Assembly (NCBI GenBank): GCA_044220955.1
Contig: JBGAQA010000039.1
Span: 1-56,298 of the forward strand
DNA length: 56,298 nucleotides
From: Sandaracinaceae bacterium
Lineage (GTDB): Bacteria > Myxococcota_A > Polyangia > Polyangiales > Sandaracinaceae
Direction: 5' to 3'
This document shows, one piece after another, positions 5,313 to 32,091 of the stretch (its first letter is position 1; each line of letters starts with the position of its first letter). A program made the position numbers and the translations under genes. The notes beneath the pieces were generated by a model that saw only the letters and a list, made by a program, of their open reading frames with translations, ran no database searches and had not been told where the DNA came from.

Positions 5313-7181
5313 ATGTCGCGTCGTGTCGCACTCGCCCTCGTGGAGGCGATGTTCCCGTCCGGGCAGCTCGTGCAAGGGGCGGATGAAGCCACGCTGCGCC
5401 ACGTCGAGGCGGTGATCGGGGCCTCGGGCCTCGCGCCAGCGCTCCTCTTCCAGCTGGCGGTACGCGCGCTCGACCTCTCGGCGCGGGCACGGACGGGCCG
5501 CTCGTTCGCCGACCTCGACCGCGCGCGTCAGCAGGCCTTGCTCGAGGCGTGGGCGTCGGGTGGGCCGATCGGGCCGGTCGCCTCGCTGGTCGGGATGATC
5601 GTGAACCTCGCGCACCTCGACCGTCCGCCGATCCGCGCCGCGCTCGAGTCGCGCGCCCGCGAGCCGCGTCCCGTGGCGGACGAAGCAGCGCCGCGCGGCA
5701 TCATCGACGCGACGGAGCTCCCCGAGGACGAGATGGAGTGCGACGTCGTCGTCGTCGGCACCGGTGCGGGCGGCGCCGTCGCGGGGACCGAGCTCGCTCA
5801 GCGCGGACACGCGGTGGTCTTCATCGAGGCCGGCCCCTACCGGGGCCGCGCCGCGTTCGGGGGCGCGGCCCTCGAGGCGTACGGGTCCCTGTACGCGAAG
5901 GCCGCCATCGCGATCGGCGATCCGCCGATCCCGATCATGTCGGGGAGCCTCGTCGGTGGCTCGACCGCGATCAACACGGGGACCTGCTTCCGTCCCCCGG
6001 ATTGGGCCCACGCGCGTTGGGTCGCGCAGGCGGGGGACCCCGCGCTCTCGCTCGACGCCCTCGCGGCCGACTACGACGCCGTGGAGCGGACGCTCGACGT
6101 CGTGCCTTGCACGCGGGGCCTCGCCGGGCCCATCGCCGACGTCCTCGGGCGAGGCTGCGAGGCGCTCGGCCTGCCGCACGGGCCGACGCGACGCAACGCG
6201 CGCGGCTGCGACGCCCAGGGCTTCTGCGACTTCGGCTGCGCGCGCGGGGCCCGCCGGTCCGTGGATCTCGCGTACCTGCCCGCTGCGCTCGCGCGCGGTG
6301 CGGTCGTGCTCACGGGCGCCTCCGCGGAGCACGTGATCATGGAGGGCGGCCGTGCCGTCGGCGTGCGAGCGCGCACGCGCACGGGGCGCTCGATCTCCGT
6401 GCGTGGGAGGGCCGTGCTCCTGGCGGCCGGCGCGCTCCGGACGCCCGGCGTGCTGGGGCGCTCGGCGCTGGCCAGGCCGCTCCCCGCCCTCGGCCGGCAC
6501 CTGCGGCTGCAGCCGAGCGCGGGGATCGTCGGCGTGATGAAGGAGCGCATCGACGGGTTCTCGCGCGTCGCTCAGGGCTGGGCGTCGGACGGCCTGCTCG
6601 CGGCAGGCATCCTGATCGTCGCGGCACAGCACGACGCGAGCCTCGCGGCGACGGTCCTCGGGCTCACCGGGGAGCGGCTGCAGTCCGCCCTCGACGAGGC
6701 ACCGCACGCGGCGTCGCTCGGGGTGCTCGCCGCCGATCTCGACTCGGAGGGCACCATCGCTGCGGTCTGGAGCGGACATCCCGTCGTGCGCTACCGCCTC
6801 TCGCGCGAGGATCGGCGGCGTCTCGAGCAGGGCCTCGCCAGCGCCGCGCGCGTGCTGCACACCGCGGGAGCTTCGCGGCTCGTCCCGCTCGTCGACGGTG
6901 CCCAGGTCTTCGACGGGGCGCGGGGCTATCGCGCCCTCGTCGGCGGAGGCCTCGCGGGGCGTCGCATGCGCCTGGTGAGCTTCCACCCGATGGGGACCGC
7001 GCGCATGGCCCGGCGCGCGCGAGACGGCGTCGTGGACGCCGAGCATCGCGTGTTCGGGGCGCGGGGCCTCTACGTGGTCGACGCGAGCGCCATCCCGGGC
7101 CCGCTCGGCGTGAACCCTCAGCTCGCGATCATGGCGATGGCGCGTCGCGCGTCGCGCGTCGTCGACGCCGAGATCCGCTGA
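5313..7181 (+). CDS. GMC family FAD oxidoreductase (long-chain alcohol oxidase-like architecture)
   Basis: DVVVVGTGAGG, VGGSTAINTG, CDAQGFCDFGC, HPMGTARM, GLYVVDAS, GVNPQLAIMA. Confidence 0.9.
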   Translation: MSRRVALALVEAMFPSGQLVQGADEATLRHVEAVIGASGLAPALLFQLAVRALDLSARARTGRSFADLDRARQQALLEAWASGGPIGPVASLVGMIVNLAHLDRPPIRAALESRAREPRPVADEAAPRGIIDATELPEDEMECDVVVVGTGAGGAVAGTELAQRGHAVVFIEAGPYRGRAAFGGAALEAYGSLYAKAAIAIGDPPIPIMSGSLVGGSTAINTGTCFRPPDWAHARWVAQAGDPALSLDALAADYDAVERTLDVVPCTRGLAGPIADVLGRGCEALGLPHGPTRRNARGCDAQGFCDFGCARGARRSVDLAYLPAALARGAVVLTGASAEHVIMEGGRAVGVRARTRTGRSISVRGRAVLLAAGALRTPGVLGRSALARPLPALGRHLRLQPSAGIVGVMKERIDGFSRVAQGWASDGLLAAGILIVAAQHDASLAATVLGLTGERLQSALDEAPHAASLGVLAADLDSEGTIAAVWSGHPVVRYRLSREDRRRLEQGLASAARVLHTAGASRLVPLVDGAQVFDGARGYRALVGGGLAGRRMRLVSFHPMGTARMARRARDGVVDAEHRVFGARGLYVVDASAIPGPLGVNPQLAIMAMARRASRVVDAEIR

Positions 7182-7219: not shown

Positions 7220-10213
7220 TCAACGCAGATCGACGGGATCGGTCAGCCGCGCGCGATCGGTCGAGGCTCCGCTGATCACGTCCAGGGACACGGCGACGTC
7301 CAGCTCGCGACCGCTGATCGAGCCGTGGCAGCCGCCGCAGAGGCCGTTGAAGAACTGCCGCGGGACCGAGCGGGTGATGCGCTCCCCCGGGTAGTACTGC
7401 TCGGCCTCGCGCTGCACGAGCCGTCCCGTGAAGGGCATGTTCACGTCGAAGTCGAGCGGGTGACCGGCCGCGTCCGTCGGCGCGAACATCAGGGGCGTGC
7501 CGCCGGGCAGACGGATGCGCGCCGAGCCGTCTTCGAGCAGCATCACGACACCGAGGCTGCGCCGGTCTCGCCAGAAGCGGCCGCGCGTGTCCGTCACGAC
7601 GCGGTCGGGCGGCAGGTCTTCGAAGCGCGTGATCCCGGCCGGCGGTGGCTGCGGCGTGAGGATCTCGATGCCACCGATCCGGTCGTCGATCGGCCGGAAG
7701 GTTCGCGTGTTCGTGAACATCAGCGACTCGATCATCGGGAAGTCGGTGAAGCGGACGACGGCGTCGGTCGCGCCCGGCTCCATGATCGGGTGGTCGATCT
7801 CGCGTCCGTCGCTCCGCGCGATCGATCGATGCGAGCGCGCGAACAGTGCCACGGCCTCGATCTCGGCGCGGCCGGGCACGGCGGCGAGCGTGCGGACGTC
7901 GCCCGTCTGCGGATCGAGCTCGCACAGGTCGAAGTCGCTGGGTGCCGCCGCACCTGCGCAGGAGACGAGGATGCGCCGGTTCGGCAGGGGCGAGGGTGAG
8001 CGGAACACGCCCGCGGGCATCATCCGCAGCGAGTGCACGTACGCGCGGTCGGCCGGATCGCGATCGGCCTGATCCGGACCGATGCTGCGGTCGAACACGG
8101 CGATCGCTCCGGCACCGTCGGCGGTGTCGAGCTCGGCCGCGACGAAGGCGAAGCGGCCGTCGATCAGCTCGACGACCTCGGTGGCGCTGTCGAACCCGAG
8201 GCTGTCGCGCGACGCGTAGAGAGGATGGTAGTCGCCGCCGTCGAGCAGCTGGCGTCGGAGGGCCAGGACGTGGAAGTCGTCCGCGCGCTTCTCGGTGGTG
8301 TAGATGACGTGCCCGTCGCCCATGAACGAGGGCGCGAGCTCCTGATCGAGCAGGAAGGTGAGCTGTCGGACGCTGCCGCTCGCGGGATCGAACACGAAGA
8401 GGTTGGCGTTCGGCTCGAGGCGCGCAGGCGTACGGGTCGGCCCGGGCGAGACGAGGTCGGCGCGGTCGAGGTCGCCGCGCGTGGAGACGAAGACGATCGT
8501 CCCGTCCGGCGCGAAGGCCGGGTCGAGATCGTGGGTGAGGATCCCATTCGCGCGATCGACCGCGGCCGCGACGCCCGGGATGGGCTCGCAGCCTCCGCCG
8601 GTCGCGTCGGCCCAGTAGAGGCGCGCAGGTGCCCCCTCCGACGTCCGCACCGAGAACGCGATCCGGCTCCCGTCCCAGGAGGTCGCGGGCCCTCGCACGT
8701 CCGCGCTCGCCACGTCGAGGCCGCAGCCGGCGAGCAGCGACGTGCTCGGGCCGAGCGAGAGCGCGCCCGTGGCGTCGAGGCTCGCGTCGGCGAGCCGCAG
8801 ATCGGCGCCGGGCCGGTAGACGTCCACTTCGGTCGGTCGACCGACGCCCGAGGGTCGCTCGACGTAGAGCACGCCGTGCGGCGCAGGGCTCGCCTGCACC
8901 TCTCCGCGGGCGATCGCCTCCGCGCGCTCCAGCGCGTGCCATCGCGCGATGACGCAGTACGACGGGACCACGTCGAGATCGCCGTGCTCGACGTCGAAGT
9001 CGGCGCAGCGGTCCCGGCCCTCGTCCTCGAAGAGCGCACCGCCGCGGTGCGTGATCCCCTCGCCCGCGCCGCCGGCGCCCGGGGGGAAGAGGTTCTTCTC
9101 CACCAGGCGACTGTGCCGCGGGTCGTCGGACTCGAGCGATAGGAACGCACGCGCGAGCGCGTAGTTGCGACGCCGAGCGAAGGTCGAGAACGCTCCGCCC
9201 GAGCCGCCGCGGAGCTGGAAGCGCAGGCCGATCGGCGAGTGGCACCCGAGCACCATGCAGCCCTCGCGCACGAACACCGGGATCACCCGGTTGGCGAAGA
9301 AGCGATAGCCGGGGCTCGCGTCCGCCTCGCGGTAGTGCGCGGGATCGCTGGCCACCGTGCTCGCGGCCCAGTCGCGGATGTGCATCCAGGCCGAATCGCT
9401 CGTGCCCTCGAAGATCGCGCCGCCGCCGTGGAACGTGCCGCCTCGATCGGCCGGGAGCGGCCGCCGGAGCAGCTCGCTCCGCTCGACGGGATCGCCGAGG
9501 AACTGCGTCGCGATGAACCAGTTCCAGCGCTGCTCGGTCGTGTCGTCGCCGCACGCCAGGTGGAAGTCGGCCAGCGCCGCGCCGTGGCAGGCCGCGCTCG
9601 AGCAGCGCGCGCGGAGGATGGGGGCGACCTCGCTCTGGAAGCGGTCGAACGACGCGGCGTCGCTCGGCGCGGTCCCCGGGTCGAAACCCGCGGCGGTTCC
9701 CGCCCCGGCGACGCACGACCCGTCGCCCGTGGTCGCGCGGGCGCGCGGCACGCCGGTCCGCGTGTAGCCCGCGGCCAGCCACTGCCGGAGCAGGCGGTCC
9801 GTCGTCGAGCCCTGATCGATGATCCGGCCTCCGGCGTGCCGGATGTCGACCGTCACCCGGACGGAGCGCTCGTCGGGGCGGAGCGGATCCGGCGCGTCCA
9901 GCGTCTCGACGTACACCTGCGGCGCGGGCCCCGTCTTCAGCAGCAACGTCGGGACCGGGTAGGGCCCGTAGGTCGCGAGCAGATCCTGCCGACGCATGAG
10001 CGCGTCGTAGCTGGTGAGGTCGAGGTTGCCCGGCGCCTGGCCGCCATCGTCACCGACGTGGCAGCCGCCAGCGTTGTGCAGGCAAGATCCTTCGATGACC
10101 GGCGCGATCTGGTCGTCGAAGTACGACCCGTCCGGCGGCAGCTCCGGCTCGCACCCTGTGATCAAGAGCCCGCTGACGGCGAGCCAGGCGAGACCCCGCG
10201 GCAAGCGCTCCAC
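7220..10213 (-). CDS. Lipoprotein with cytochrome c-like motifs, a TolB/PD40 propeller and a hydrazine synthase alpha-like C-terminal domain
   Basis: Lipobox LLITGC; CX6CH, CX4CH, CX4CH and CGGCH motifs; PD40 repeats (SWDGSRIAFS, DLDPAFAPDGTIVFVSTR); EDGSARIRLPGGTP...PGE...CGGCH. Confidence 0.7.
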   Translation of the reverse strand: MERLPRGLAWLAVSGLLITGCEPELPPDGSYFDDQIAPVIEGSCLHNAGGCHVGDDGGQAPGNLDLTSYDALMRRQDLLATYGPYPVPTLLLKTGPAPQVYVETLDAPDPLRPDERSVRVTVDIRHAGGRIIDQGSTTDRLLRQWLAAGYTRTGVPRARATTGDGSCVAGAGTAAGFDPGTAPSDAASFDRFQSEVAPILRARCSSAACHGAALADFHLACGDDTTEQRWNWFIATQFLGDPVERSELLRRPLPADRGGTFHGGGAIFEGTSDSAWMHIRDWAASTVASDPAHYREADASPGYRFFANRVIPVFVREGCMVLGCHSPIGLRFQLRGGSGGAFSTFARRRNYALARAFLSLESDDPRHSRLVEKNLFPPGAGGAGEGITHRGGALFEDEGRDRCADFDVEHGDLDVVPSYCVIARWHALERAEAIARGEVQASPAPHGVLYVERPSGVGRPTEVDVYRPGADLRLADASLDATGALSLGPSTSLLAGCGLDVASADVRGPATSWDGSRIAFSVRTSEGAPARLYWADATGGGCEPIPGVAAAVDRANGILTHDLDPAFAPDGTIVFVSTRGDLDRADLVSPGPTRTPARLEPNANLFVFDPASGSVRQLTFLLDQELAPSFMGDGHVIYTTEKRADDFHVLALRRQLLDGGDYHPLYASRDSLGFDSATEVVELIDGRFAFVAAELDTADGAGAIAVFDRSIGPDQADRDPADRAYVHSLRMMPAGVFRSPSPLPNRRILVSCAGAAAPSDFDLCELDPQTGDVRTLAAVPGRAEIEAVALFARSHRSIARSDGREIDHPIMEPGATDAVVRFTDFPMIESLMFTNTRTFRPIDDRIGGIEILTPQPPPAGITRFEDLPPDRVVTDTRGRFWRDRRSLGVVMLLEDGSARIRLPGGTPLMFAPTDAAGHPLDFDVNMPFTGRLVQREAEQYYPGERITRSVPRQFFNGLCGGCHGSISGRELDVAVSLDVISGASTDRARLTDPVDLR

Positions 10214-10257: not shown

Positions 10258-10271
10258 TTGACGCCGATCAA
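10258..10271. promoter_or_regulatory. FNR/FixK-type box TTGA-CGCCGA-TCAA upstream of the HzsA-like gene
   Basis: Close to the canonical TTGAT-N4-ATCAA; centred 51.5 bp before GTG 10213; overlaps the stop codon of the upstream gene. Confidence 0.7.
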
Positions 10272-11335
10272 GTGCGTGAACGCCGCGCGCGGGACCAGAG
10301 CACGGCCATCAGGAACGAGGCGAGCGCGAGCGCGTTGAGGGCGGCCCCCGCCCGCCGCAGGTCGGGCAGCCCCCCGAGATCTCCGCCAACGCGCGCGACC
10401 AGGCCGAGGTGCAGGACTGCGAGAGGCACGTAGAGCGCGCGGTGGTAGGGCACCTCGATGCGCGCCACCGCCGGCAGGATGATCGGCGCGTGGGCGAAGA
10501 CCATCGAGAGGACGAAACCGACCAGGACGGCGTGCAGGACGGCGTCGTACATGGGACCGGCGGGCTCGAGCCCATGGCGCACGAGGAGCGCGCCCGACAC
10601 GATCAACCAGAGCGTGCCGCCGAGCACGCCGAGCGCGGTGAACCGCGGCAGGCCGGGGCGCTGCAGCAGGCGGCGTGCGAGGTCGAAGCGCAGCTGCCAG
10701 AGCCCGAGCAGGGTCAGGCACGCGCCGAGAGCCGCGCTGGCGTGCGGGACCGCGACGCAAAGGGCCGCGCTCGCCGAGGCCAGAACCAGGGCCAGGGCCA
10801 CGAAGAGCCTCGAGGCCCAGCGGGGCGTGGGCGCGAGGCGCGAGAGCTCGAGGCGCTCGGCCAAGATGGTGAGCACGAAGAAAGCGAGCCAGGCGGGCAC
10901 CACGTCGGCGACAGGGCGGCCGAGCGCCCACGCCGTCGAGCCGCCCGCGAGCAGCAGCGAGCCGAGCAGCATGATCCAGGTGAACGCCAGCGACTGGCGC
11001 CGGACGATCGCGACGTTGGCGAGCACGAGCACCACGCTCCCCGCGACGCTCGACCACGCGGCACCAGCGACCTGCAGCATCGTGCCGACGCCGCCGAGCG
11101 CGCTCGCGAGGGGCGCCGCGAACGCCCAGCGCGTGCCCAGCGCGACCGCCCGCTCGAGCGCGATGACCGTGCCGAACACCCCCAGGACGAAGAGCGGCCC
11201 GTGATCCAGCGCGCGATCCGCGGCCGGCACCCGGAATCCGATGCGGCCCAGGCCGGCCAGGACCGACACGAGCGCCATGGCCGCGACCACGAGCAACGTG
11301 GCGCGCCGGACCCAGGGTGCGGCCGGCTCGCTCAA
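10268..11335 (-). CDS. Polytopic membrane protein with conserved His residues (NnrS-like or heme-copper-related, uncharacterised)
   Basis: About 11-12 hydrophobic segments; DHGPLFVLG, ERLEL, DAVLHAVLVGFVLSMVFAH; TTG start overlaps the DUF59 stop. Confidence 0.65.
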   Translation of the reverse strand: MSEPAAPWVRRATLLVVAAMALVSVLAGLGRIGFRVPAADRALDHGPLFVLGVFGTVIALERAVALGTRWAFAAPLASALGGVGTMLQVAGAAWSSVAGSVVLVLANVAIVRRQSLAFTWIMLLGSLLLAGGSTAWALGRPVADVVPAWLAFFVLTILAERLELSRLAPTPRWASRLFVALALVLASASAALCVAVPHASAALGACLTLLGLWQLRFDLARRLLQRPGLPRFTALGVLGGTLWLIVSGALLVRHGLEPAGPMYDAVLHAVLVGFVLSMVFAHAPIILPAVARIEVPYHRALYVPLAVLHLGLVARVGGDLGGLPDLRRAGAALNALALASFLMAVLWSRARRSRT

Positions 11336-11658
11336 CCGTCCCAGCCGAGCTCTTGGCGGGTCGAGGCGCTCATCCGGTCGGGGCTCCAGGGCGGATCCCA
11401 GACCAGGCGTACCGCGACGTCGTCGACGCCAGGCAGCGCCAGCACGCGCTCGCGGGCGTCGCTCGCGATCTGCTCGCCCAGGGGACAGGCGGGCGTCGTC
11501 ATCGTCAGGTCGATCTGGACGCTCCCACCGTGGATCTCCACGCCGTAGACCAGCCCCAGCGCGACCACGTCGATGCCGAGCTCCGGATCGAGCACGCCGC
11601 CGAGCGCCTCCATCACCCGCGCGTGCTGCACGCTCGTCGCGCTCTGGTCGTCACCCAC
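11332..11658 (-). CDS. DUF59 / SufT-PaaD-like metal-sulfur cluster assembly factor
   Basis: VLDPELGIDVVALGLVY, MTTPACP, VWDPPWSPDRMS. Confidence 0.9.
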   Translation of the reverse strand: MGDDQSATSVQHARVMEALGGVLDPELGIDVVALGLVYGVEIHGGSVQIDLTMTTPACPLGEQIASDARERVLALPGVDDVAVRLVWDPPWSPDRMSASTRQELGWDG

Positions 11659-11720: not shown

Positions 11721-11786
11721 GTCATTCGGGCTTCGGGCGCATATCTGCCACTCAACGTGGCTGCCAAGACGAGCAAGTCGAGCGCG

Positions 11787-12482
11787 ATGGAAACGAGCGG
11801 GGACCCGAAGGCCCGGTTTCCGGTGGCCTGCCTGGACTGCCCGGCGGCGCGGGTCGGCTGCTTCGACGTCGCGGTCGGGCTGGGAACTTCTCCCTGTAGG
11901 TTCGTGAAGGGAGCGTTGAGCGCTCGCGCGCCCGTCCCGACGTCGTGGGCGGACGGCTATGGTCTCTTGCTCGTCAGGCGCGGCGTCGTGGTGCGGACCC
12001 GCGCGCCGAAGAACGGCCCGTCGGTGGCGATCGACTGCGTCGGGCCCGGCGCCGTCCTGCCGCTCACCTCCGACGCGGTGGAGATCGGCTACGCCGCCAC
12101 CGAGGTGCTCGTGTGCCTCTACCCGCGCGGCGGCCTGGAGGAAACGCTCGCGCAGGAGCCGGCCACGGCGCGCGATCTCATCGTGGCCCTGACCGGCGCG
12201 CTCGAGCGTGTCGAGCTGCTCGCCGAGGCGCGCGGGCAGCGGAGCGCCGACACGCGGGTGGCCCGCGTCCTGTCCGTGCTCGCCGACAAGCTCGCGCCGC
12301 CGCAGCGGCGAGACAGGCTCCCCGCGGGCCTGCAGCAGCGCGACCTGGCCCGTCTGGCCGGCGTGCGCCACGAGTCGTTCTGCCGGGCGCTCGGCAAGCT
12401 CGAGCGAGCGGGCATCGTGCGTCGGCTCCCCGAGGGCCTGCACATCGAGCAGTACGACCAGCTCGCGACGTTCGACGGTTGA
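11787..12482 (+). CDS. Crp/Fnr family transcriptional regulator with an N-terminal Cys cluster
   Basis: CLDCPAARVGC near the N-terminus; C-terminal HTH QRDLARLAGVRHESFCRALGKLERAGIV. Confidence 0.85.
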   Translation: METSGDPKARFPVACLDCPAARVGCFDVAVGLGTSPCRFVKGALSARAPVPTSWADGYGLLLVRRGVVVRTRAPKNGPSVAIDCVGPGAVLPLTSDAVEIGYAATEVLVCLYPRGGLEETLAQEPATARDLIVALTGALERVELLAEARGQRSADTRVARVLSVLADKLAPPQRRDRLPAGLQQRDLARLAGVRHESFCRALGKLERAGIVRRLPEGLHIEQYDQLATFDG

Positions 12483-12539: not shown

Positions 12540-12553
12540 TTGCCGCGGGTCAA
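12540..12553. promoter_or_regulatory. FNR/FixK-type box TTGC-CGCGGG-TCAA upstream of the acyltransferase
   Basis: Centred 40.5 bp before GTG 12587; CAGGAT lies 6 nt before the start. Confidence 0.7.
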
Positions 12554-12586
12554 CCAGGAGCGGGCGCTCGAACGCAGGATCCGACG

Positions 12587-13522
12587 GTGGCACCGCTCAC
12601 GCGCTACGACGTCGACGGCCTCGACCACCGCGACCCCGAGCGCATCGAACGCTTCGTTTCGTCGATCGAGCCGCTGCTCGAGGCGTGGTTTCGGCCGGTC
12701 GTCCGCGGCACGGAGCGGGTGCCGGAGGGACCCGCGCTCTACGTCGGGAACCACAACGGCGGCACGGTCAGCGCCGACTCGTTCATCTTCGGAGCCTCCG
12801 TCTACCGTGCGCACGGGATGAAGGCCGTGCCCTACGCGCTGGCGCACGACCTCGTCCTGCGGACGCCCGGGATGAACCAGCTCCTCATGCCGCTCGGCGC
12901 GGTGCGCGCGTGTCCTCGCAACGCGCACGCGCTCTTCGATCGCGGCCACAAGGTGATGGTCTACCCGGGCGGCGACATCGACTCGATGCGACCGTTCGCG
13001 ATGCGCGACCGGATCGTGTTCGGGCCACGACGCGGCTACGTCCGGCTCGCGCTGCGGGCGGGCGTGCCGATCGTCCCCGTCGTGGCCGCCGGTGCGCACG
13101 TGACCTCGATCGTCCTGACGGATGGGCGGCGGCTGGCGAAGCTGCTGGGGCTACCGCGTCGGTTCCGGATGGAGGTCTGTCCGGTGACGCTCAGCATTCC
13201 GTGGGGCCTGGTCGTCGGCATCACGCCGCTCCACATCCCCCTGCCGACGCGCATCTTCCTCGAGGTGATGGCGCCCATTCGCTTCGATCGCCAGGGTGCG
13301 GCGGCCGCCGAGGATCGCGACTACGTCGAGCAGTGCCACCGGCGAGTGCACGGCGCGATGGAAGCACGTCTGGCTCAGCTCGCCGCCGAGCGAGCGGGGA
13401 GGCTCTCCCCGCCGGCGCCCCCCGCGCCGACGAGGATGGACCTGGAAGCCGCGCGTGCTCAGGAGATGACGGGGAGCTGCACCGAGCGCTCCTTGCCCTT
13501 GGGCACCGCCTGGACCCACTGA
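12587..13522 (+). CDS. Lysophospholipid / DGAT2-type (PlsC superfamily) acyltransferase
   Basis: ALYVGNHNGG...D, VMVYPGG, GYVRLALRAGVPIVPV. Confidence 0.9.
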   Translation: MAPLTRYDVDGLDHRDPERIERFVSSIEPLLEAWFRPVVRGTERVPEGPALYVGNHNGGTVSADSFIFGASVYRAHGMKAVPYALAHDLVLRTPGMNQLLMPLGAVRACPRNAHALFDRGHKVMVYPGGDIDSMRPFAMRDRIVFGPRRGYVRLALRAGVPIVPVVAAGAHVTSIVLTDGRRLAKLLGLPRRFRMEVCPVTLSIPWGLVVGITPLHIPLPTRIFLEVMAPIRFDRQGAAAAEDRDYVEQCHRRVHGAMEARLAQLAAERAGRLSPPAPPAPTRMDLEAARAQEMTGSCTERSLPLGTAWTH

Positions 13523-14706
13523 CCGAAGCTGCGCTGCTCCTCGAGCCGGCACGACCACACGAGCTTGCCGTCGTGCACGGTCATGTCCGGGCAGCCGTCG
13601 CACATGTTGGCGCTCCCGTCCGGCAGCAGGTCGATCGGCTGGATCACCAGGACCGTCTGCAGGTACTGCTTGTCGAAGAGGCTCGTGGGCTTGCGGACGA
13701 TCGATCGCAGCCAGTTCCTGCGCGCGCGCCGCACGCCTCGGTCGAAGAGCGCGGTCGACATCACCGTCCGGCCCGTCCCGAGCGTCCAGTCCGGAGCGTA
13801 CGAGAGGTAGCGCCCCTTCATCATGTGATAGCCGGTCTGGGCCAGCTCCATGAACTTGGGGCCGAGGTAGCCGTGCACCTTCCCCGGGGAGCCGACGCGG
13901 AGCGCGGCGAGCCACTTGAAGGAGTCCGGCTTCTCGGTGCCGTTGAGGTACGCGCAGGGCTCGAAGTCCGGCTCGAGCTCGCGCATCTTGCCGACGATCT
14001 CGCGGGCGTCGATGTCGGTGCGCCGCTCCGGCTGTTCGGTCTCGGTGTAGACCAGCTTGCCCATGTCGACCTTCTTGCCGCCGGCGAAGTAGTCGTACTC
14101 GGCGAGCTTGGCCGCGCGGAACAGGATGAACACCACCGTGTGGACCTTGCCGATGTTCTTCGTCGCCCACGAGAGCACGTCGGGCACCTGATCGATCGTG
14201 TCCTCGTACACGGTGGAGTTGAAGGCGCAGGCGAGGCCGCCGACCGAGGCGACCAGGTCCGCGTACTCCTGGCGCAGCTCGTTGGTCTCCTTCTCGGTCT
14301 TGTTGCGCCAGCCGGGACGACCCTGGCGAGAGTCGACGTGGAAGGTGACGCCCATCAGGCCGGCTCGCTTGAGATCCTCGAGCAGCGCCCGCGTGATCGC
14401 CTTGCCGTTGGTGTTGACGATCGCCTTGCGTCCCATCGAGCGCACGTGGCGGATGATGTCCGGCAGGTCCGGATGGAGCAGCGGATCACCGCCGGCGATC
14501 GAGACGCCGTCGAAGTTGCGCAGCGAGGCGAACACGTCGAGGTCGGAGCGCACCTCCGGCATCGAGCGGTGGGACTTGACGTTCTCGCGGTAGCATCCGT
14601 CGCAGGACAGGTTGCATTGCTGCGTGGGCTCCAGCCACGCGATGGGGTTGTCGGACAAGCTCCACGGCAGTCGGTAGAGCGCACGATGATCGAGGTTGGC
14701 TCGCAT
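13459..14706 (-). CDS. Radical SAM protein with additional C-terminal Cys residues
   Basis: CNLSCDGC, IAGGDPLLHP, NTNG; C-terminal CDGCPD...SC. Confidence 0.9.
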   Translation of the reverse strand: MRANLDHRALYRLPWSLSDNPIAWLEPTQQCNLSCDGCYRENVKSHRSMPEVRSDLDVFASLRNFDGVSIAGGDPLLHPDLPDIIRHVRSMGRKAIVNTNGKAITRALLEDLKRAGLMGVTFHVDSRQGRPGWRNKTEKETNELRQEYADLVASVGGLACAFNSTVYEDTIDQVPDVLSWATKNIGKVHTVVFILFRAAKLAEYDYFAGGKKVDMGKLVYTETEQPERRTDIDAREIVGKMRELEPDFEPCAYLNGTEKPDSFKWLAALRVGSPGKVHGYLGPKFMELAQTGYHMMKGRYLSYAPDWTLGTGRTVMSTALFDRGVRRARRNWLRSIVRKPTSLFDKQYLQTVLVIQPIDLLPDGSANMCDGCPDMTVHDGKLVWSCRLEEQRSFGQWVQAVPKGKERSVQLPVIS

Positions 14707-14741
14707 GGCCCGGCTGATACACGGTCGGCGAGGGCGAGCTC

Positions 14742-14755
14742 TTGCGGCCGATCAA
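14742..14755. promoter_or_regulatory. FNR/FixK-type box TTGC-GGCCGA-TCAA upstream of the radical SAM gene
   Basis: Centred 42.5 bp before ATG 14706 (- strand); TATCAG lies 7 nt before the ATG. Confidence 0.7.
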
Positions 14756-14811
14756 CTCGCCCACGCGACGCGGGGCAAGCGCACGCGCCGACCGCGCTCG
14801 CGGGGTGCCTC

Positions 14812-16110
14812 TCAGAACTGGATGGTGCGCTCGCGCTGCGCGAGCTTCGCGAGCGTCTTGCGCGAGCGGTAGAAGCCGCGCCAGAGCTCGAGGTAGCCCT
14901 CGAGGAGCCGCTCCGGCGACATGTTCTTCGGCTGGAAGACCACGTTCGCGTCGTTGTAGCGCGACCAGTCCTGGTGCAGGAGCCGCCCCTCGGCCGAGAG
15001 CGACGCGAAGTCGGGGGTGCCCGGGTACGGAGTGCGGATCGCGAACTCGGCCTTCTTGAGCCGCACCGCGTCCGCGACCTCCAGGATGCGATCGAAGGTG
15101 CCCTCGTCGTCCTCCTCGTTGCCCACGAGGAAGGAGGTGTACGGCTCGACGCCCTCGTCCATGCAGCGCGTGAGCGCGTCGATCGCCCGCTGGCGGTTCT
15201 TGGGATCGCGGCCGGTGTAGGCGCCCCGCGTGATCGGGTCGAACCCACCGACGAGGTAGAACATGCTGATCCCGGCGCGGCGCAGGCGCGCGAAGAACGC
15301 TGGCGTCTGCGCGAGGACCAGCGGCATGCTGATCCCGACGTAGCTCACGCCGATCTTCTTGCCGCGCTCGGCGATCGCGTCGAGGAGCGTGCCGAAGGCC
15401 CGCTGGGCGCCCGACCCCGGGAAGAAGCTCGTGTCTTCGGTGAGGGAGGCCAGCTTGCCGTAGCGCTCGAGCTGCTCGATCTGCGCGAGGGCGTGCGCGA
15501 CGGGGAAGGTGCGCAGCGTGCGCCCCATGCTCACCGGCAGGATGCACGCCGAGCAGTGCAGCATGCAGCCGCGAGAGAGCTGGACCGGGTAGTCGTCGGG
15601 CCGGTAGACGTCGTTCTCCTTGGCCACGTAGAGGTCCACGCGCGGCAGGCGCAGCGTGCAGGGGTCGACGGCCTCGCTCGCCTGGTAGCGGGGCCGGAGC
15701 TCGCCGCGCGCGGCGTCCCGCAGGACCTCCGGCCACACTGCCTCGCCCTCGCCGACGACCACGGCGTCGCAGTGCGCGCCGGCCTCGTCGGGGCGTGCCG
15801 TCGGGAAGATGCCGCCCATGACCACCCGGGCGCCCGCAGCGCGGAACGCGTCGGCCAGCGCCATCGCGCGGGTGGCCGCGGGCGTGAAGCACGAGATCGC
15901 GACCAGGTCCGGCGGATCGTCGAGCCCGACGTCCTCGACGCGATCGTCGCGGAAGTCGATCGCCCAGTCGGCGGGCGTCACCGCGGCGAGGCACGCGATG
16001 CCGAGGGAGGGCGGCCCGAAGTACTCGTCGCAGGGCACGTCGTCGCGCAGCTCGGGGTGCACGTCGGCGTGACGCTGGAATCGGGCATAGACGAACCGCA
16101 AGCGCTTCAT
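14812..16110 (-). CDS. B12-binding domain radical SAM protein
   Basis: PPSLG, DLVAISCFT, VVMGGIFPT, VVVGEGE, SRGCMLHCSAC, TPYPGT; ATGA overlap with the ACAD stop. Confidence 0.9.
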   Translation of the reverse strand: MKRLRFVYARFQRHADVHPELRDDVPCDEYFGPPSLGIACLAAVTPADWAIDFRDDRVEDVGLDDPPDLVAISCFTPAATRAMALADAFRAAGARVVMGGIFPTARPDEAGAHCDAVVVGEGEAVWPEVLRDAARGELRPRYQASEAVDPCTLRLPRVDLYVAKENDVYRPDDYPVQLSRGCMLHCSACILPVSMGRTLRTFPVAHALAQIEQLERYGKLASLTEDTSFFPGSGAQRAFGTLLDAIAERGKKIGVSYVGISMPLVLAQTPAFFARLRRAGISMFYLVGGFDPITRGAYTGRDPKNRQRAIDALTRCMDEGVEPYTSFLVGNEEDDEGTFDRILEVADAVRLKKAEFAIRTPYPGTPDFASLSAEGRLLHQDWSRYNDANVVFQPKNMSPERLLEGYLELWRGFYRSRKTLAKLAQRERTIQF

Positions 16111-17600
16111 GCGAACACCTCTTCGATCGAGCCGGCCGACGTGAGCAGGGCGACGACGTCGCCGTCCCGGACTTCGGAGACGCCGGTCTCTCTCGCGAGC
16201 GAGAGGGCGCGGGCGGCGCGCGTCAAGGCCCTGTCGGCCGCGTGCTCGAGCAGCGGAACGCGCTGCGGGACCGCCGTCGCCCTCGCGGCCAGGCACGCGC
16301 CGGCGGCGTGCAGCGCGACGTCGGCGCTCGCCAGCTCGAGAAGGAGCGGCTGGTGCTGGATCGCCGAGACGCCGAGGTCGCGACGCACGTCGGCGACGAG
16401 CGCGCCGAGCTGCGCGACGAGCTCCGCGCGTCGCTGCTCGAGGGCGCCCCCTGCGGCGCCGTCGTGCGGGAGCCCCCGACCGGCGGTCAGGGCGCTGCCG
16501 AGACGGACGAGGAGCACGTCGTTCGCGCCCTCGAAGATGCGCGTCACGCGGCAGTCGCGGGCCAGGAGCGCGACGCCGGCATCCTCGAGGAACCCGAGCG
16601 CCCCGTGCACCTGGATGGTGCGGTCGCACGCGTCGTACGCGAGCTCGCTCGCCAGCACCTTGAGCGCAGCGGAGCGCATCGCGATCGACTCGCCTCGCGC
16701 CTCGGCGCTCGCCGTCGCGTCGAGGAGCGCCTCGATGGTCGTCACCGCCGCCGCGATCGACGCCACGTGCGCGCGGACCGCGCCGTGCTCGATGAGCGCC
16801 CGGCCCGACTGCCGGCGGTCACGCGCGTGGGCGAGGGTGTGAGAGAGCGCGGCGCGCGCCGTCCCGAGGCACCCTGCCGCCAGCAACGTCCGACCCCACT
16901 CGAGCGCGCGGTGGGCGTTCTCCGTGCCGTGGCCGCCCCCGTCGAGGCGCTGCGCGTGCGTGAGCGGAACGCCGTCGAGGTGCAGCGAGCAGGTCGAGCT
17001 CGCGCGCAGCCCCATCTTCTTCTCTTCGGCCCCGAGGGCGAGACCGGGGCTGGCTCGGGGCACGAGCAAGAGGGTGGTGACCCTGGCGCCCTCGTCGGGT
17101 GAGCGAGCCAAGACGGTGTACACGCCGGCGAGCGCCGCGTTCGTCACGTACGACTTCTCGCCGTCGAGACGCACGCTCTCCCCCTTCACGCGCGCCGTCG
17201 TGCGGATCGCGGTCAGATCGGATCCGGCGCCCGGCTCGGTCGCGGCGAAGGCGGCGATCTGCTCGCCCTTCGCGAGCCGCGGCAGCCACTCCGCCCGCAG
17301 CGCGTCGCTCCCGTGCTCGATCAGAGCGCGTGTCCCGAGACCGTTGTGCAGGCCGACGGTGGTGGCCAGCGAGCGATCCGCGCGTGCGAGCTCGGCGACG
17401 AGCGTCGCCGTCCCGCCGAGCCCGAGCCCGAGCCCGCCCCATCGCTCGGGCGTGGCGAGGCCGAAGAGGCCGAGCGCGCGCGCACCCTCGAGGAGCTCGG
17501 GGGGGAGGGCCGCTCGGCGGTCGTTCAGCGTGGCGTCGACCTCGCGCCGACAGAACCGCCGCACTTCGTCGACGAGGGGGGCGATGCTTGGATCCGTCAC
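16107..17600 (-). CDS. Acyl-CoA/ACP dehydrogenase with a C-terminal extension
   Basis: AFAATEPGAGSD, LDGEKSYVTNA, KMGLRAS, IQVHGALGF, RIFEGANDV; GTGA overlap with the ACP stop. Confidence 0.9.
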   Translation of the reverse strand: MTDPSIAPLVDEVRRFCRREVDATLNDRRAALPPELLEGARALGLFGLATPERWGGLGLGLGGTATLVAELARADRSLATTVGLHNGLGTRALIEHGSDALRAEWLPRLAKGEQIAAFAATEPGAGSDLTAIRTTARVKGESVRLDGEKSYVTNAALAGVYTVLARSPDEGARVTTLLLVPRASPGLALGAEEKKMGLRASSTCSLHLDGVPLTHAQRLDGGGHGTENAHRALEWGRTLLAAGCLGTARAALSHTLAHARDRRQSGRALIEHGAVRAHVASIAAAVTTIEALLDATASAEARGESIAMRSAALKVLASELAYDACDRTIQVHGALGFLEDAGVALLARDCRVTRIFEGANDVLLVRLGSALTAGRGLPHDGAAGGALEQRRAELVAQLGALVADVRRDLGVSAIQHQPLLLELASADVALHAAGACLAARATAVPQRVPLLEHAADRALTRAARALSLARETGVSEVRDGDVVALLTSAGSIEEVFA

Positions 17601-17863
17601 GGGCGCGCACGAGGGGCGGACGGCCGCGCCCGCGCGACGAACGCGCACGCGTCGTCGACCGTGCGCAGCTCCATCGCCTCTTCCATCGGGAGGTCGACGT
17701 GGAACTCCTCGGAGAGGACCGAGAGCATCTCGAGGCTCTGGAGCGAGTCCAGCCCGAGATCCTCGCGCAGGCGGTCCTGCGGTCGGACGCGGGACGGCTG
17801 CGTCTCCAGGATGTCGGCGAGGATCTCGATCGTTCGGTGCCGGAGGTCTCGTTCTTCGCTCAT
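17597..17863 (-). CDS. Acyl carrier protein
   Basis: Acidic 88-aa protein with the phosphopantetheine site DLGLDSL and LRTVDD; ATGA overlap with the SDR stop. Confidence 0.92.
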   Translation of the reverse strand: MSEERDLRHRTIEILADILETQPSRVRPQDRLREDLGLDSLQSLEMLSVLSEEFHVDLPMEEAMELRTVDDACAFVARARPSAPRARP

Positions 17864-18873
17864 GCTGCTCCTTCGATCCCGCGCACGGCGGGCAGATAGC
17901 GGTGACGGGCGAACCACGCCCAGGCGCGATCGAGGGTCTCGTCGATCGGCCTGAACCGTGCGCCGAGGTCCGTGGCCGCCCGCTCCGAAGACACGGGCTG
18001 CCCGCTCGCGATGAGGTCGACCAGCTCGCGCGGGAAGGGCACGCGTGCGCGACGGGGCTCGGCCTGCCGTTCCTCGAGGTCGGCCCGCACGCGCGCCTCC
18101 TCGATCTCGAGCGGCGTCTCGGGGACGTGGCCGCCGTAGCGCGCGGCGACCTTCTGAAGCAGGGCGCCGACGCGCACGTCGTGGCCAGCGACGCAGTAGC
18201 GCCCGCCGCGCGATCCGCGCAGCGCTGCCTCGACGTGGGCCTCGGCGACGTCGCCGACGTCGACCACGTTCACCGTCCCGTCGACCCACCACGGTAGCGT
18301 GTGCAAGACGACGCCGAGCAGGAGACCGCTCGTGCCGACCCGCACGTCGAGCGGTCCGAGGCACGCGCCCGGCAGGATCGTGACCGCGTCGAGCCCGCGC
18401 GCGACGGCGCGCTCGAGCTCGCGCTCCATCGCCCACTTCGTCGCGCGGTACGTGCTCTCTTCGGGGCACTCCGCGGGCACGTCTTGCTCGTTCGCGCTCC
18501 GGCCGGCCGGCGCAGCGCCCAGCGAGCCGACGCTCGACGTGTAGACCAGGCGGGGGACCCCGGCGCCGAGCGCGGCGTCGCAGACGCTGGCGATCTGGGC
18601 GACGCCTTTCGCGATCGAGCCCGCCCGGTCCACCGAGTAGCGCGGGTAGTGCGCACCCGCGACGAACACGACGTCACAGTCGCGCATCGCGAGAGTGAGC
18701 GCCGCGTGGTCCTCGAGCGCGCCGGGCACCAGCTCGACGGGACGCCGCCGCAGGTACGCCGTGATGCTCCTCGGACGACGCGTCGCGCGGACCGCGACGC
18801 CTCGCGCTAGCAGCGCGTCGACCAGGTTCAGGCCGAGGAATCCGCTTCCCCCGATCACCAGAGCACGCCTCAT
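17860..18873 (-). CDS. NAD(P)-dependent epimerase/dehydratase (extended SDR, HpnA/DFR-like reductase)
   Basis: LVIGGSGFLG, LVYTSS, YRATK, VDVGDVA; ATGA overlap with the FAAL stop. Confidence 0.9.
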   Translation of the reverse strand: MRRALVIGGSGFLGLNLVDALLARGVAVRATRRPRSITAYLRRRPVELVPGALEDHAALTLAMRDCDVVFVAGAHYPRYSVDRAGSIAKGVAQIASVCDAALGAGVPRLVYTSSVGSLGAAPAGRSANEQDVPAECPEESTYRATKWAMERELERAVARGLDAVTILPGACLGPLDVRVGTSGLLLGVVLHTLPWWVDGTVNVVDVGDVAEAHVEAALRGSRGGRYCVAGHDVRVGALLQKVAARYGGHVPETPLEIEEARVRADLEERQAEPRRARVPFPRELVDLIASGQPVSSERAATDLGARFRPIDETLDRAWAWFARHRYLPAVRGIEGAA

Positions 18874-20561
18874 CGAGGACCTCCGCTCGCGAAGCGCTCG
18901 GCGCACTCGGCTCGGCGGACCTTACCGCTCGAGGTGCGCGGGATCGTGCCGATCGGCCAGACGGCCACGGCGTCGGCACGGACGCCCATCACCGCGAGCA
19001 GCTCGCCGCGGATGCGCGTCGAGACCCGGTCCTTGGCCTCGGCGTCGAGCCCGCGCGCCTCGACGACCACGACGAGATCCTCGGTCCCCGTCGCCGCGCT
19101 CCCGCGCGCGAAGGCCGCCGCGCTCGCGACGGACGTATCGCTCTCGAGCGCCACGCGCTCGACGTCCTCGGGGTGAACGTTACGGCCGCTCTGGATGATG
19201 AGCTCGCGAGCGCGACCCGAGATGAAGAGGCGCCCGCCGCGGACGAACCCGAGGTCGCCCGTGCGCAGGGCGCCGTCCTCGAGCGCCGTCGCCGAGGCCT
19301 CCTCATCGTGATAGTAGCCGTCCATCACCGAGGGACCCGAGACGCGGATCTCTCCGATCGTGCCCTCGGGCAGCACGCGGGAGCCCACGTCGCGGATCGT
19401 CACCGAGGTGCCGGCGACGGGGGAGCCGCACGACACGAGCTCGCGCGCCGAGGGATCGGCCGACGCTCGCGCGAGCGCCCCGCGCTCGAGGCTCGCTCGG
19501 TCGACCGAGGTCGTCTGTGCAGGCTCACCCAGCGGGTGCGTCGTCACGGCGAGACTGGACTCTGCCAGCCCGTAGACCGGCGTGAGCGCCGTCGGCCGAA
19601 ACCCGGTGCTCCGGAACCGCTCCGCGAAGCGACGCAGCGTCGCGCCGTGCACCGGCTCCGCTCCGTCGAGCGCGGCGCGCCACGAGCCCAGATCCAGACC
19701 CTCCGGGTCCGCCTTCTTCGCGACGAGCTCGTAGGCGAAGTTGGGCGCGGTGGAGAGCGTCCCGCGATGCTGTGCGATCAGCTCGAGCCAGCGCCGAGGC
19801 CGCATGATGAACGCCTCGGGCGCCATGAGGTGCAGCGTGTAGGGCGCGACGAGCGCGGTGAGCAGCGCGCCGATCAGGCCCATGTCGTGGTGGAGCGGGA
19901 GCCAGCTCACGCCCACGTCCGTGGGCACGATCGCGAGCGCGTGCGCGATGGCGCTCGCGTTCGCCACGATCGCGCGGTGCCCGAGCAACACCCCGCGCGG
20001 CGTGCCCGTCGTGCCCGACGTGTACTGGAGCAGCGCCGGCGTGCGTGCGTCGATCGCGCCGTCCCTCGTGGCGCGCGGCAGCGTCTCGTCCGCCTCGGCC
20101 GGTGTCAGGGAGGCGTCGATCGTGCCCTCGAGGGAGGTCAGCCGCGCGGCCTCGACGATCCGCGGCGTCGCGACGAGGATCCGCGCGCGCGCGTGCCGTA
20201 TCGCGCGCGCACATTGCTCGAGGTATCGGTCGAGGGGCCCGAACGTCATCGGGGTCGCGAGCGGCATCGGCAGCGCACCGAGGAGCAGCGCGCCGAAGAA
20301 CGCCCCGAGGAAGTCCGCCGAGGTCGGCAGCATGATGGCCACGGGGTGACCCGGACCGACCCCGCGCGTGCGCAGTGCCGTCGCCCAGCGTCTCGCGCTG
20401 CCGAGGGTCGCGCGCGCGTCCATCGGTCGCGGCTCGCCGGACCCGTGGAGCACCACGAAGGGGCGATCGTCGTCGGCGTTCGCGATCAGCGCGTCCACGA
20501 GCGTAGCGACGCGCGGAGACGGCGCCGGCGGCCCGGCGAGCTGCGAAGGTCGAGTCGACAT
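18870..20561 (-). CDS. Fatty acyl-AMP ligase (FAAL)
   Basis: LQYTSGTTGTPRG, SWLPLHHDMGLIG, APNFAY, YGLAE, RTGDLG, IPRTSSGKVRR. Confidence 0.92.
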   Translation of the reverse strand: MSTRPSQLAGPPAPSPRVATLVDALIANADDDRPFVVLHGSGEPRPMDARATLGSARRWATALRTRGVGPGHPVAIMLPTSADFLGAFFGALLLGALPMPLATPMTFGPLDRYLEQCARAIRHARARILVATPRIVEAARLTSLEGTIDASLTPAEADETLPRATRDGAIDARTPALLQYTSGTTGTPRGVLLGHRAIVANASAIAHALAIVPTDVGVSWLPLHHDMGLIGALLTALVAPYTLHLMAPEAFIMRPRRWLELIAQHRGTLSTAPNFAYELVAKKADPEGLDLGSWRAALDGAEPVHGATLRRFAERFRSTGFRPTALTPVYGLAESSLAVTTHPLGEPAQTTSVDRASLERGALARASADPSARELVSCGSPVAGTSVTIRDVGSRVLPEGTIGEIRVSGPSVMDGYYHDEEASATALEDGALRTGDLGFVRGGRLFISGRARELIIQSGRNVHPEDVERVALESDTSVASAAAFARGSAATGTEDLVVVVEARGLDAEAKDRVSTRIRGELLAVMGVRADAVAVWPIGTIPRTSSGKVRRAECAERFASGGPR

Positions 20562-20596
20562 CAGAGCCCATTACGCACACCCGAGCCCGCGCTGGC

Positions 20597-20610
20597 TTGA
20601 TCCTCCGCAA
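20597..20610. promoter_or_regulatory. FNR/FixK-type box TTGA-TCCTCC-GCAA upstream of the FAAL operon
   Basis: Centred 42.5 bp before ATG 20561 (- strand). Confidence 0.72.
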
Positions 20611-20628: not shown

Positions 20629-20642
20629 TTGATCTCGCGCAA
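20629..20642. promoter_or_regulatory. FNR/FixK-type box TTGA-TCTCGC-GCAA upstream of heme A synthase
   Basis: Centred 41.5 bp before GTG 20677; embedded in an 11-bp inverted repeat at 20618-20646. Confidence 0.72.
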
Positions 20643-28121: not shown

Positions 28122-28135
28122 TTGACTGGACGCAA
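28122..28135. promoter_or_regulatory. FNR/FixK-type box TTGA-CTGGAC-GCAA upstream of the DAO / B12-rSAM unit
   Basis: Matches the consensus; centred 62.5 bp before GTG 28191. Confidence 0.6.
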
Positions 28136-32039: not shown

Positions 32040-32091
32040 CGCGCTCAGCCAATCGGCATCCGACAGCATCACGGACCCGCGCGCGTTGCGC

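Follow-up and report, generated by a model that had tools for sequence, protein, structure and literature searches.

A conserved five-gene operon of myxobacteria predicted to tailor carrier-bound fatty acids with a B12-type radical SAM enzyme

A contig of 56,298 nucleotides from a Sandaracinaceae bacterium (JBGAQA010000039.1, G000:C234 in our numbering; its whole length is called the window, and it belongs to a 7.5-Mb genome that is 88% complete and has 73% G+C) carries an operon of five genes encoding a fatty acyl-AMP ligase-like enzyme (FAAL), a short-chain dehydrogenase/reductase (SDR), an acyl carrier protein (ACP), an acyl-CoA/ACP dehydrogenase (ACAD) and an enzyme of the radical S-adenosylmethionine (SAM) type with a B12-binding-type N-terminal domain. 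This conserved operon, found in dozens of myxobacterial genomes, is the real unit of the locus. The first-pass annotation had combined it with a second radical SAM gene and a convergent acyltransferase gene into one undescribed lipid system of seven genes. The places and domains it gave for all seven were borne out, and so was a carrier-based tailoring unit that matches no characterised pathway, whereas the seven genes do not form one pathway and that framing is to be dropped. The cassette probably tailors carrier-bound fatty acids under low oxygen. On balance, and with less assurance, we favour a chemistry in which the B12-type enzyme forms a C-C bond on the fatty acyl-ACP by a radical route; the result would most likely be a methyl branch and, as the next choice, a ring. 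This reading is supported by the linkage of four of the genes in 43 of 54 loci, by intact catalytic residues, by the enrichment of Fnr-type boxes upstream of the cassette and by a B12-binding domain that scores above its Pfam cut-off.

Conservation of the five-gene operon

Conservation was followed through the gene of the B12-type enzyme, which had matches in 43 of 401 genomes of the phylum (E<=1e-60, paralogues included) and in 13 of 49 further relatives. The 54 loci compared here are the window, 51 others with a match of at least 46% identity, one half of a split gene and L255, which is counted although its contig is cut before the B12 gene; L021, L022, L133 and L139 were excluded to prevent double counting. 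Eighteen loci with about 35-47% identity to the window protein (L241-L250, L261-L266, L268 and L269) have no cassette and were treated as paralogues. G026 enters the genome tallies solely as a negative, and the cassette genomes are related by kinship, so that the counts are not independent trials.

The ACAD gene is present in 48 of the 54 loci, the SDR gene in 46, the ACP gene in 45 and the FAAL gene in 34; the corresponding numbers are 10 for the second radical SAM gene, five for an operonic ketosynthase and one for the acyltransferase. SDR, ACP, ACAD and B12-type enzyme occur together in 43 loci, and all five genes in 31. Conservation of gene order, which the first-pass annotation had proposed as a check, was thus found in 43 of 54 loci. 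Seven of the 11 loci that lack the full four-gene set are cut by contig ends, and the others are L213, L215, L233 and L307. Two gene orders were seen, ACP-ACAD-B12 and ACP-B12-ACAD, the ACAD gene flanking the B12 gene directly. In the window the four junctions of the operon are 4-bp overlaps reading ATGA, ATGA, GTGA and ATGA, as had been reported for it, and the acyltransferase and second radical SAM genes converge with 3′ ends overlapping by 64 bp. No further gene family recurs beside the cassette in more than nine of 43 loci.

The cassette is present in two of six genomes of the window's own genus, and Sandaracinus amylolyticus is named for the orthologues of the B12-type enzyme and the SDR (P0009 and P0282). 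Outside the phylum, two genomes among 301 chosen around a Planctomycetota record have FAAL-ACP-B12, with an ACAD gene following in one copy and the contig ending in the other; none of 251 genomes around a Gemmatimonadota record had the cassette, in a search that had no positive control.

Table 1. Features of the window around the five-gene operon
Feature	Position	Strand	Basis
Crp/Fnr-family regulator, cysteine-rich N-terminus	11757..12482	+	PF13545; weak FixK/FnrL matches
Fnr-type box before acyltransferase	12540..12553	.	TTG-N8-CAA
PlsC/DAGAT-like acyltransferase, local neighbour	12587..13522	+	PF01553
Second radical SAM enzyme, Tes-like fold, accessory, own transcription unit	13459..14706	-	model fold
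Fnr-type box before second radical SAM gene	14742..14755	.	TTG-N8-CAA
Radical SAM enzyme, B12-binding-type N-terminal domain, core	14812..16110	-	PF02310 45.6 bits
ACAD, C-terminal extension, core	16107..17600	-	PF02771/PF02770/PF00441
Dedicated ACP, core	17597..17863	-	PF00550
Extended SDR (HpnA/dihydroflavonol-reductase-like NAD(P)H reductase), core	17860..18873	-	PF01370
FAAL, core	18870..20561	-	PF00501
Fnr-type box TTGATCCTCCGCAA before five-gene operon	20597..20610	.	TTG-N8-CAA
Second Fnr-type box, between operon and divergent heme A synthase gene	20629..20642	.	TTG-N8-CAA

Enzymes of the cassette and their proposed chemistry

The 57 open reading frames (ORFs) of the window were scanned against Pfam, and NCBIfam scores were judged against curated cut-offs (given below as score of cut-off). 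By sequence, the nearest relatives of the ligase are FAALs rather than CoA ligases, and loading of the ACP is predicted: its best solved relative is the E. coli FAAL 3PBK (E 2e-83), and FAAL domains of polyketide synthases and FadD23/FadD32 are also among its relatives. Twenty-four of 25 cassette FAALs form one tree branch (support 93/92, not starred). The cassette FAAL of L216 comes from another branch of the tree, so FAAL function appears to have been recruited twice. Five of the 11 genomes with FAAL-less cassettes were searched, and all have other FAALs, each outside the cassette branch; these might load the ACP in trans. The window's genome has a second stand-alone FAAL gene, followed by two ACP genes (G000:C222:19799-22002), which belongs to another branch of the FAAL tree.

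The catalytic residues of these families are intact throughout: D39-S40 of the ACP is kept in 38 of 38 sequences and, in a second count, in 41 of 41, Y142 and K146 of the SDR YxxxK motif in 37 of 37, and Glu357 of the ACAD IFEG motif in 38 of 38. The nearest structures of the ACAD include very-long-chain ACAD. Those of the SDR, which scores 200 bits on TIGR03466 (cut-off 368), are 3WJ7 and 2X4G, then cinnamoyl-CoA reductase. Assignment of the SDR to the fatty acyl reductase (FAR) type was considered and rejected (PF07993, 19.7 bits with a cut-off of 20.1; TIGR01746, 40 of 213); the genome encodes its true PF07993 proteins at other places.

The B12-type enzyme scores above the cut-off on PF02310 (45.6 bits, cut-off 32.1) and below it on PF04055 (26.1 bits, cut-off 29.5), and its radical SAM cysteines C182, C186 and C189 are kept in 40, 39 and 40 of 40 sequences. 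It has in this way the two sequence marks of class B (cobalamin-dependent) radical SAM enzymes, a B12-binding domain at the N-terminus and a CxxxCxxC motif. It reaches no NCBIfam cut-off and thus matches no characterised family: its scores on the AprD4 family NF033070 (21.7 of 500 bits) and the ladderane-type TIGR04072 (35.9 of 360) do not indicate orthology, and those on HpnJ (24 of 578) and HpnR (23 of 650) are likewise far below the cut-off. No informative fusion was found among longer proteins, a single distant match of 872 aa being weak evidence. The structural model (predicted local distance difference test score, pLDDT, 94.3) is closest to AprD4 (Z 29.4, root-mean-square deviation (rmsd) 3.3, 384 aligned, 19% identity), followed by MgmA (Z 24.8), CysS (23.3), OxsB (22.4) and TsrM (21.6), these last four being cobalamin enzymes. 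AprD4 itself is described as binding no cobalamin despite its B12-binding-type domain (PMC12931638), and 'B12' is therefore used as a domain label and not for a shown cofactor. AprD4 is a dehydratase working with an NADPH reductase partner (PMC5461906), and a hydrophobic lower axial residue is typical of radical methylases (PMC12931638). Prediction of a complex between ACP and B12-type enzyme gave 0.11, 0.48 and 0.02 with a mark of 0.32 and was counted neither way. A TonB receptor behind the L306 cassette was tried as support for cobalamin use and set aside: B12 receptor is its best-scoring assignment, at 179 of 600 bits, but HmuY follows it.

Three more B12-binding radical SAM genes lie in the window at 29406-30737(+), 30762-32069(-) and 32181-33824(+), with boxes at 28122 and 32092. 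The second is paralogous to the cassette enzyme (41%), and on the ladderane-type model the first reaches 244 of 360 bits. Other Myxococcota have comparable pairs, adjoined by PlsC-type acyltransferases in L263 and L320 and by a ketosynthase in L318.

The absence of a ketosynthase, which the first-pass annotation had presented as a property of the system, holds for the window, where tblastn with four FabF-like proteins found none. It characterises this copy and is no general feature, elongation being optional: L230, L237, L308, L309 and L365 have a FabF-like gene as the first gene of the operon, and L211 and L212 have one in divergent orientation. The four operonic copies that were aligned have a Cys-His-His triad and a shortened loop; a FabF with this triad at the head of five operons ties the cassette to acyl-ACP chemistry. 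Compared with two other FabF-like proteins, the cassette-linked FabF of L230, L308, L309 and L365 has a loop shorter by about 11 residues, a difference that may affect the choice of chain length. Among the 57 window ORFs Pfam detected no nonribosomal peptide synthetase (NRPS) domain; small precursor peptides were not searched for.

From the chemistry of the families involved we infer the following steps. The FAAL would adenylate a long-chain fatty acid and load it onto S40 of the ACP, and the ACAD would strip two hydrogens to give a 2-enoyl-ACP independently of O2. The radical SAM enzyme would then take a hydrogen off the chain; with cobalamin it would methylate the resulting radical or else let it add to the enoyl bond. 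Since the ACAD and radical SAM genes are adjacent in either gene order, the enoyl group may be what the radical enzyme needs; it could activate the allylic position for methylation or act as the acceptor for ring closure, as an olefin is proposed to do for the B12 ring synthases Grs (PMC13459092, section 11). The SDR would reduce the product, from thioester to aldehyde or alcohol, or at a 3-oxo group in cassettes with chain extension by FabF, and general acyltransferases or ether-lipid enzymes encoded elsewhere would place the chain into lipids.

Several known systems share parts of this arrangement. MbtM, MbtL and MbtN, the lipid-tail module of mycobactin, likewise bring together a FAAL, a dedicated ACP and an acyl-ACP dehydrogenase to give an enoyl-ACP. 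The cassette is not orthologous to MbtM or MbtN (261 of 621 and 64 of 700 bits), has no NRPS or conserved acyltransferase, and adds a B12-type radical SAM enzyme, an SDR and a low-oxygen box. The pyrrole module CloN3-N6 of clorobiocin combines an adenylating enzyme, a carrier, an acyl-CoA-dehydrogenase-like enzyme and a B12 radical SAM methylase, but it activates proline instead of a fatty acid and is part of a large antibiotic cluster. AprD4/AprD3 resemble the cassette in pairing a radical SAM enzyme of the closest fold with an NAD(P)H reductase, and differ in their sugar substrate, in having no carrier protein and in the cobalamin-free AprD4. Like the cassette enzyme, GrsA/B, Gmm, HpnP/HpnR/HpnJ and the proposed ladderane enzyme carry B12-binding and radical SAM domains; the substrates of these lipid modifiers, known or proposed, are hydrocarbon chains. 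The cassette enzyme scores far below the cut-offs of all their family models. ElbD, to which the system had been likened at first, is a single protein with FAR, acyl-CoA synthetase, ACP and acyltransferase domains (PMC9131029). Like the cassette, it brings ligase, ACP and reductase functions to bear on a fatty acid, but the cassette has separate genes, a non-FAR SDR and no conserved acyltransferase, and has an ACAD and a radical SAM enzyme in addition; the analogy thus fails on the reductase type and the acyltransferase link. Targeted full-text literature searches, whose coverage left out most subscription papers, returned no description of this combination and no lipid profile of Sandaracinus. 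Matches in the ESM Atlas were to uncharacterised clusters only. Within the literature searched, the cassette is an undescribed combination, of the FAAL-ACP tailoring kind plus an uncharacterised radical enzyme.

Predicted low-oxygen control and the second radical SAM enzyme

TTG-N8-CAA palindromes occur nine times in the window, where 0.83 would be expected, and none of 100 shuffles reached nine. Each transcription unit had been said to carry its own FNR/FixK-type box, and such boxes indeed lie at 12540, 14742, 20597 and 20629; those before the acyltransferase, second radical SAM and FAAL genes end 34, 36 and 36 nt short of the respective start codons. Their centres stand about 41-43 nt upstream of the starts (window 12553-12587, 14706-14742 and 20561-20597), a spacing expected for class II activator sites, which follow the -41.5 rule, if the transcripts are nearly leaderless.

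A box was found at most 350 nt upstream of 17 of 38 testable cassettes, compared with 89 of 6112 genes genome-wide (1.5%), and 53 of the 118 boxes in the genome are intergenic although intergenic DNA makes up 9.5%. Boxed units of the same genome include a quinol nitric oxide (NO) reductase, a ScdA/hemerythrin gene, heme A synthase, a benzoyl-CoA reductase operon with subunits B and C above the cut-off, and a PlsA/Ger-type gene; many other boxed genes have no evident oxygen link. The benzoyl-CoA operon, for anaerobic reduction and ring opening, lies at G000:C99:29959-38711 (L285). The PlsA/Ger-type gene, with two BcrAD_BadFG domains plus DUF2229, stands behind two boxes and is accompanied by a downstream partner gene and an ABC transporter (G000:C264:28115-32529, L282). 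The G032 cassette has a nosZ operon and, within 8 kb, a PlsA/PlsR-type pair as neighbours.

The product of the Crp/Fnr-family gene next to the acyltransferase likely reads these boxes. An orthologue is present in 10 of 12 cassette genomes and in 10 of 49 others, and cassette-linked homologues have an N-terminal CxxC in four of six cases and an RHES(F/V)CR helix in all six. The low-oxygen type of control suggested at first is upheld by the box enrichment, the boxed NO reductase and benzoyl-CoA reductase operons and the co-occurrence of the regulator, and Fnr-type control of the cassette is well supported as a prediction. The sandaracinacean group is usually thought aerobic. One sludge RNA run shared 0.09 of words and gave no evidence on expression. 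We propose that the second radical SAM gene and the acyltransferase gene are separate members of the same low-oxygen regulon. The acyltransferase, which stands beside the cassette in one of 54 loci and has a 56% paralogue elsewhere in the genome, is a local neighbour and not a conserved member of the cassette.

Other genes nearby are a GMC oxidoreductase at 5349-7181(+) and a PD40-repeat protein of 997 aa at 7220-10213(-), both behind a box and with homologues beside several cassettes. A membrane protein without a Pfam family, at 10268-11296(-), and a SufT-like gene at 11332-11658(-) form a pair also seen in L025, close to the second radical SAM gene, and in L251, close to the cassette.

The model of the second radical SAM enzyme (pLDDT 92.6) is closest in fold to the tetraether synthase GDGT-MAS/Tes (7TOL; GDGT, glycerol dialkyl glycerol tetraether), with Z 26.2, rmsd 3.2 and 310 aligned by VIA-align, the next unrelated entry reaching 17.5. 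Its residues 1-396 align onto residues 45-481 of the 7TOL chain, the region after the barrel included, and Foldseek (E 1e-11) and a profile search (E 2e-12) also led to Tes; Tes/GDGT-MAS and the bacterial Mss thus have the closest fold by three methods. By the sequence tests run, the enzyme is not a member of the Tes family. It scores 49.4 of 450 bits on the family model, with 16% identity and E 3e-7 to 7TOL, and falls short both of the family score and of the published thresholds for Tes homologues (E<1e-50 and >20-30% identity; PMC13159169, PMC8941075). Tes has two N-terminal metal domains (PMC9433317; PMC13459092, section 8), whereas in the second radical SAM enzyme the motif starts at C31 with no cysteines before it, so that the N-terminal rubredoxin and Fe-S domains of Tes are missing. 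Candidate counterparts of the three cysteines that bind the C-terminal auxiliary [4Fe-4S] cluster of Tes are its C369, C372 and C386, which are kept in 56, 55 and 56 of 63 relatives, and bacterial Tes-like proteins have a cysteine pair near the C-terminus with the same 14-residue spacing. Comparison of the C-terminal halves with those bacterial proteins gave a profile probability of 0.15%, no better than two controls, and in the full profile comparison only residues 24-220 aligned.

Relatives of the second radical SAM enzyme number 522 in the genome collection; the Tes-fold family is widespread, with 312 clusters at E<=1e-30. The gene mostly stands alone: no neighbour is common to more than 21 of 92 loci, and B12 radical SAM genes of several kinds lie near it in 12 of them. 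Among distant relatives, P0132 is fused to a PAP2_3 membrane domain and P0215 carries an acyltransferase stretch; these fusions, each a single record, suggest a lipid substrate. The enzyme plausibly works like a lipid C-C coupling enzyme. At E<=1e-40, 22 of 151 phylum genomes have full-length bacterial homologues of Tes (L345-L352); all score below the cut-off, and the window's genome was found to have none.

Alternative readings and implications

Several observations weigh against low-oxygen tailoring of carrier-bound fatty acids with radical C-C bond formation. The B12 gene of L213, L215 and L233 has no detected partners, the L307 cassette is without ACP and FAAL, 11 cassettes uncut by a contig end and with room upstream have no FAAL gene, and the SDR gene is not adjacent in either Planctomycetota copy. 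The best NCBIfam match of the FAAL, PRK09192, reaches 424 bits with a cut-off of 600. The motifs of the B12-type enzyme are variant (CxxxCxAC, TEDT and GFDP, of which TED and GFD are invariant), and with a cobalamin-free dehydratase as its closest structure methyl transfer is at most a candidate activity. Twenty-one of the 38 cassettes have no exact box, and because 31 of 304 neighbouring genes in the cassette loci are boxed as well, the box enrichment is partly regional.

The alternative that survives best, though we regard it as unlikely, is a carrier-bound pathway in which the radical enzyme replaces an O2-dependent step by a double-bond shift, a desaturation or an AprD4/AprD3-like dehydration followed by SDR reduction; it would yield unsaturated or deoxygenated chains made without O2 and no C-C bond. 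AprD4, which pairs with an NADPH reductase, leads the structural matches (Z 29.4, the next being 24.8), but its identity is just 19% and its family score 21.7 of 500 bits, similar size may drive the rank, and the B12-binding domain exceeds its Pfam cut-off. The genome has six desaturases of the O2-dependent type that would fail in anoxia, and the L307 cassette adjoins a boxed DesA-like fatty acid desaturase gene, which directly precedes it (L307:4715-5827). The FabF of five operons could carry a double bond to mid-chain, yet FabF is absent from most cassettes, and enoyl isomerases are not known to need a radical SAM enzyme.

We give little weight to a second alternative, in which the cassette, instead of making a membrane lipid, releases a small molecule (a fatty aldehyde, an alcohol or a signal) and the SDR serves as terminal thioester reductase. 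No conserved acyltransferase or head-group enzyme stands beside the cassette (one of 54 loci), the SDR resembles 3WJ7 and cinnamoyl-CoA reductase, and the distribution is patchy, as within the window's own genus. On the other hand, no conserved exporter, receptor or further tailoring gene adjoins the cassette, the SDR gene is not adjacent in two copies, and the regulon also holds the PlsA/Ger-type and Tes-fold lipid candidates.

The original seven-gene pathway, in which a chain modified by both radical enzymes would be placed on a glycerolipid or wax ester by the acyltransferase, is quite improbable. The same box stands before all three transcription units; in L223, L226 and L232 the second radical SAM gene comes directly after the B12 gene, on one strand with it; and among close relatives it occurs in eight of 12 cassette genomes compared with two of 49 others. 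Yet the acyltransferase accompanies one cassette in 54 and the second radical SAM gene ten, and phylum-wide the latter is present in seven of 29 genomes with an orthologue of the B12-type enzyme, leaving 22 without it, in two of 12 with paralogues only and in one of 10 with neither. It is present in 15 of the 41 genomes with a B12 orthologue and absent from 26, it occurs without the cassette in four genomes of other phyla, and in the 92 loci it is mostly a lone gene; this patchy co-occurrence makes it an accessory.

That the cassette feeds sphingolipid synthesis, with a 2-enoyl-ACP for serine palmitoyltransferase (SPT), or an ElbD-like ether-lipid route is very improbable: the ligase-SDR-ACP order resembles the sphingolipid operon of Caulobacter, and a boxed PlsA/Ger-type operon here and the related pair close to the G032 cassette would fit, but SPT-like matches occur in six of 39 cassette genomes (one model, none above the cut-off; 8 of 75 genomes in the survey overall), with none in the window's 88%-complete genome and none beside any cassette, DUF2229 is found in 61 of 78 genomes with or without a cassette and does not discriminate, and the SDR is not of the ElbD FAR type. 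A search of the window's genome for the CarF family gave no match, its controls likewise being unmatched.

The tailoring of carrier-bound fatty acids by a B12-type radical enzyme bears on a field that is almost uncharted, namely radical SAM chemistry on straight-chain lipids. A 2026 review has only ladderanes and jawsamycin, plus Mss, for this field; it gives ladderanes and the Jaw5 product as the sole ketoacyl lipids proposed for radical SAM modification, and no B12 enzyme demonstrated on an acyl-ACP (PMC13459092). As a compact, soluble unit of five proteins with a cultured carrier, the cassette makes this chemistry directly testable, and it could serve as a model of ladderane synthesis.

The Tes-fold family might supply the bacterial tail-coupling enzymes that are still missing for the branched tetraethers used as climate proxies; Acidobacteria must use an unknown alternative, according to PMC13159169, and Myxococcota are named among possible producers (PMC11868695). 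A more speculative and doubtful extension is that facultatively anaerobic Myxococcota possess a low-oxygen membrane-remodelling regulon leading to branched membrane-spanning lipids (resembling branched or OB-type GDGTs, brGDGT and OB-GDGT) in sludge, soil and sediments. The cassette would then make radical-branched or cyclised fatty acids, the Tes-fold family, too distant for published searches with Tes or Mss, would join the tails by C-C coupling, and the PlsA/Ger-type enzyme would make the ether bonds. If this is true, these bacteria would have gone unnoticed as a source of such lipids.

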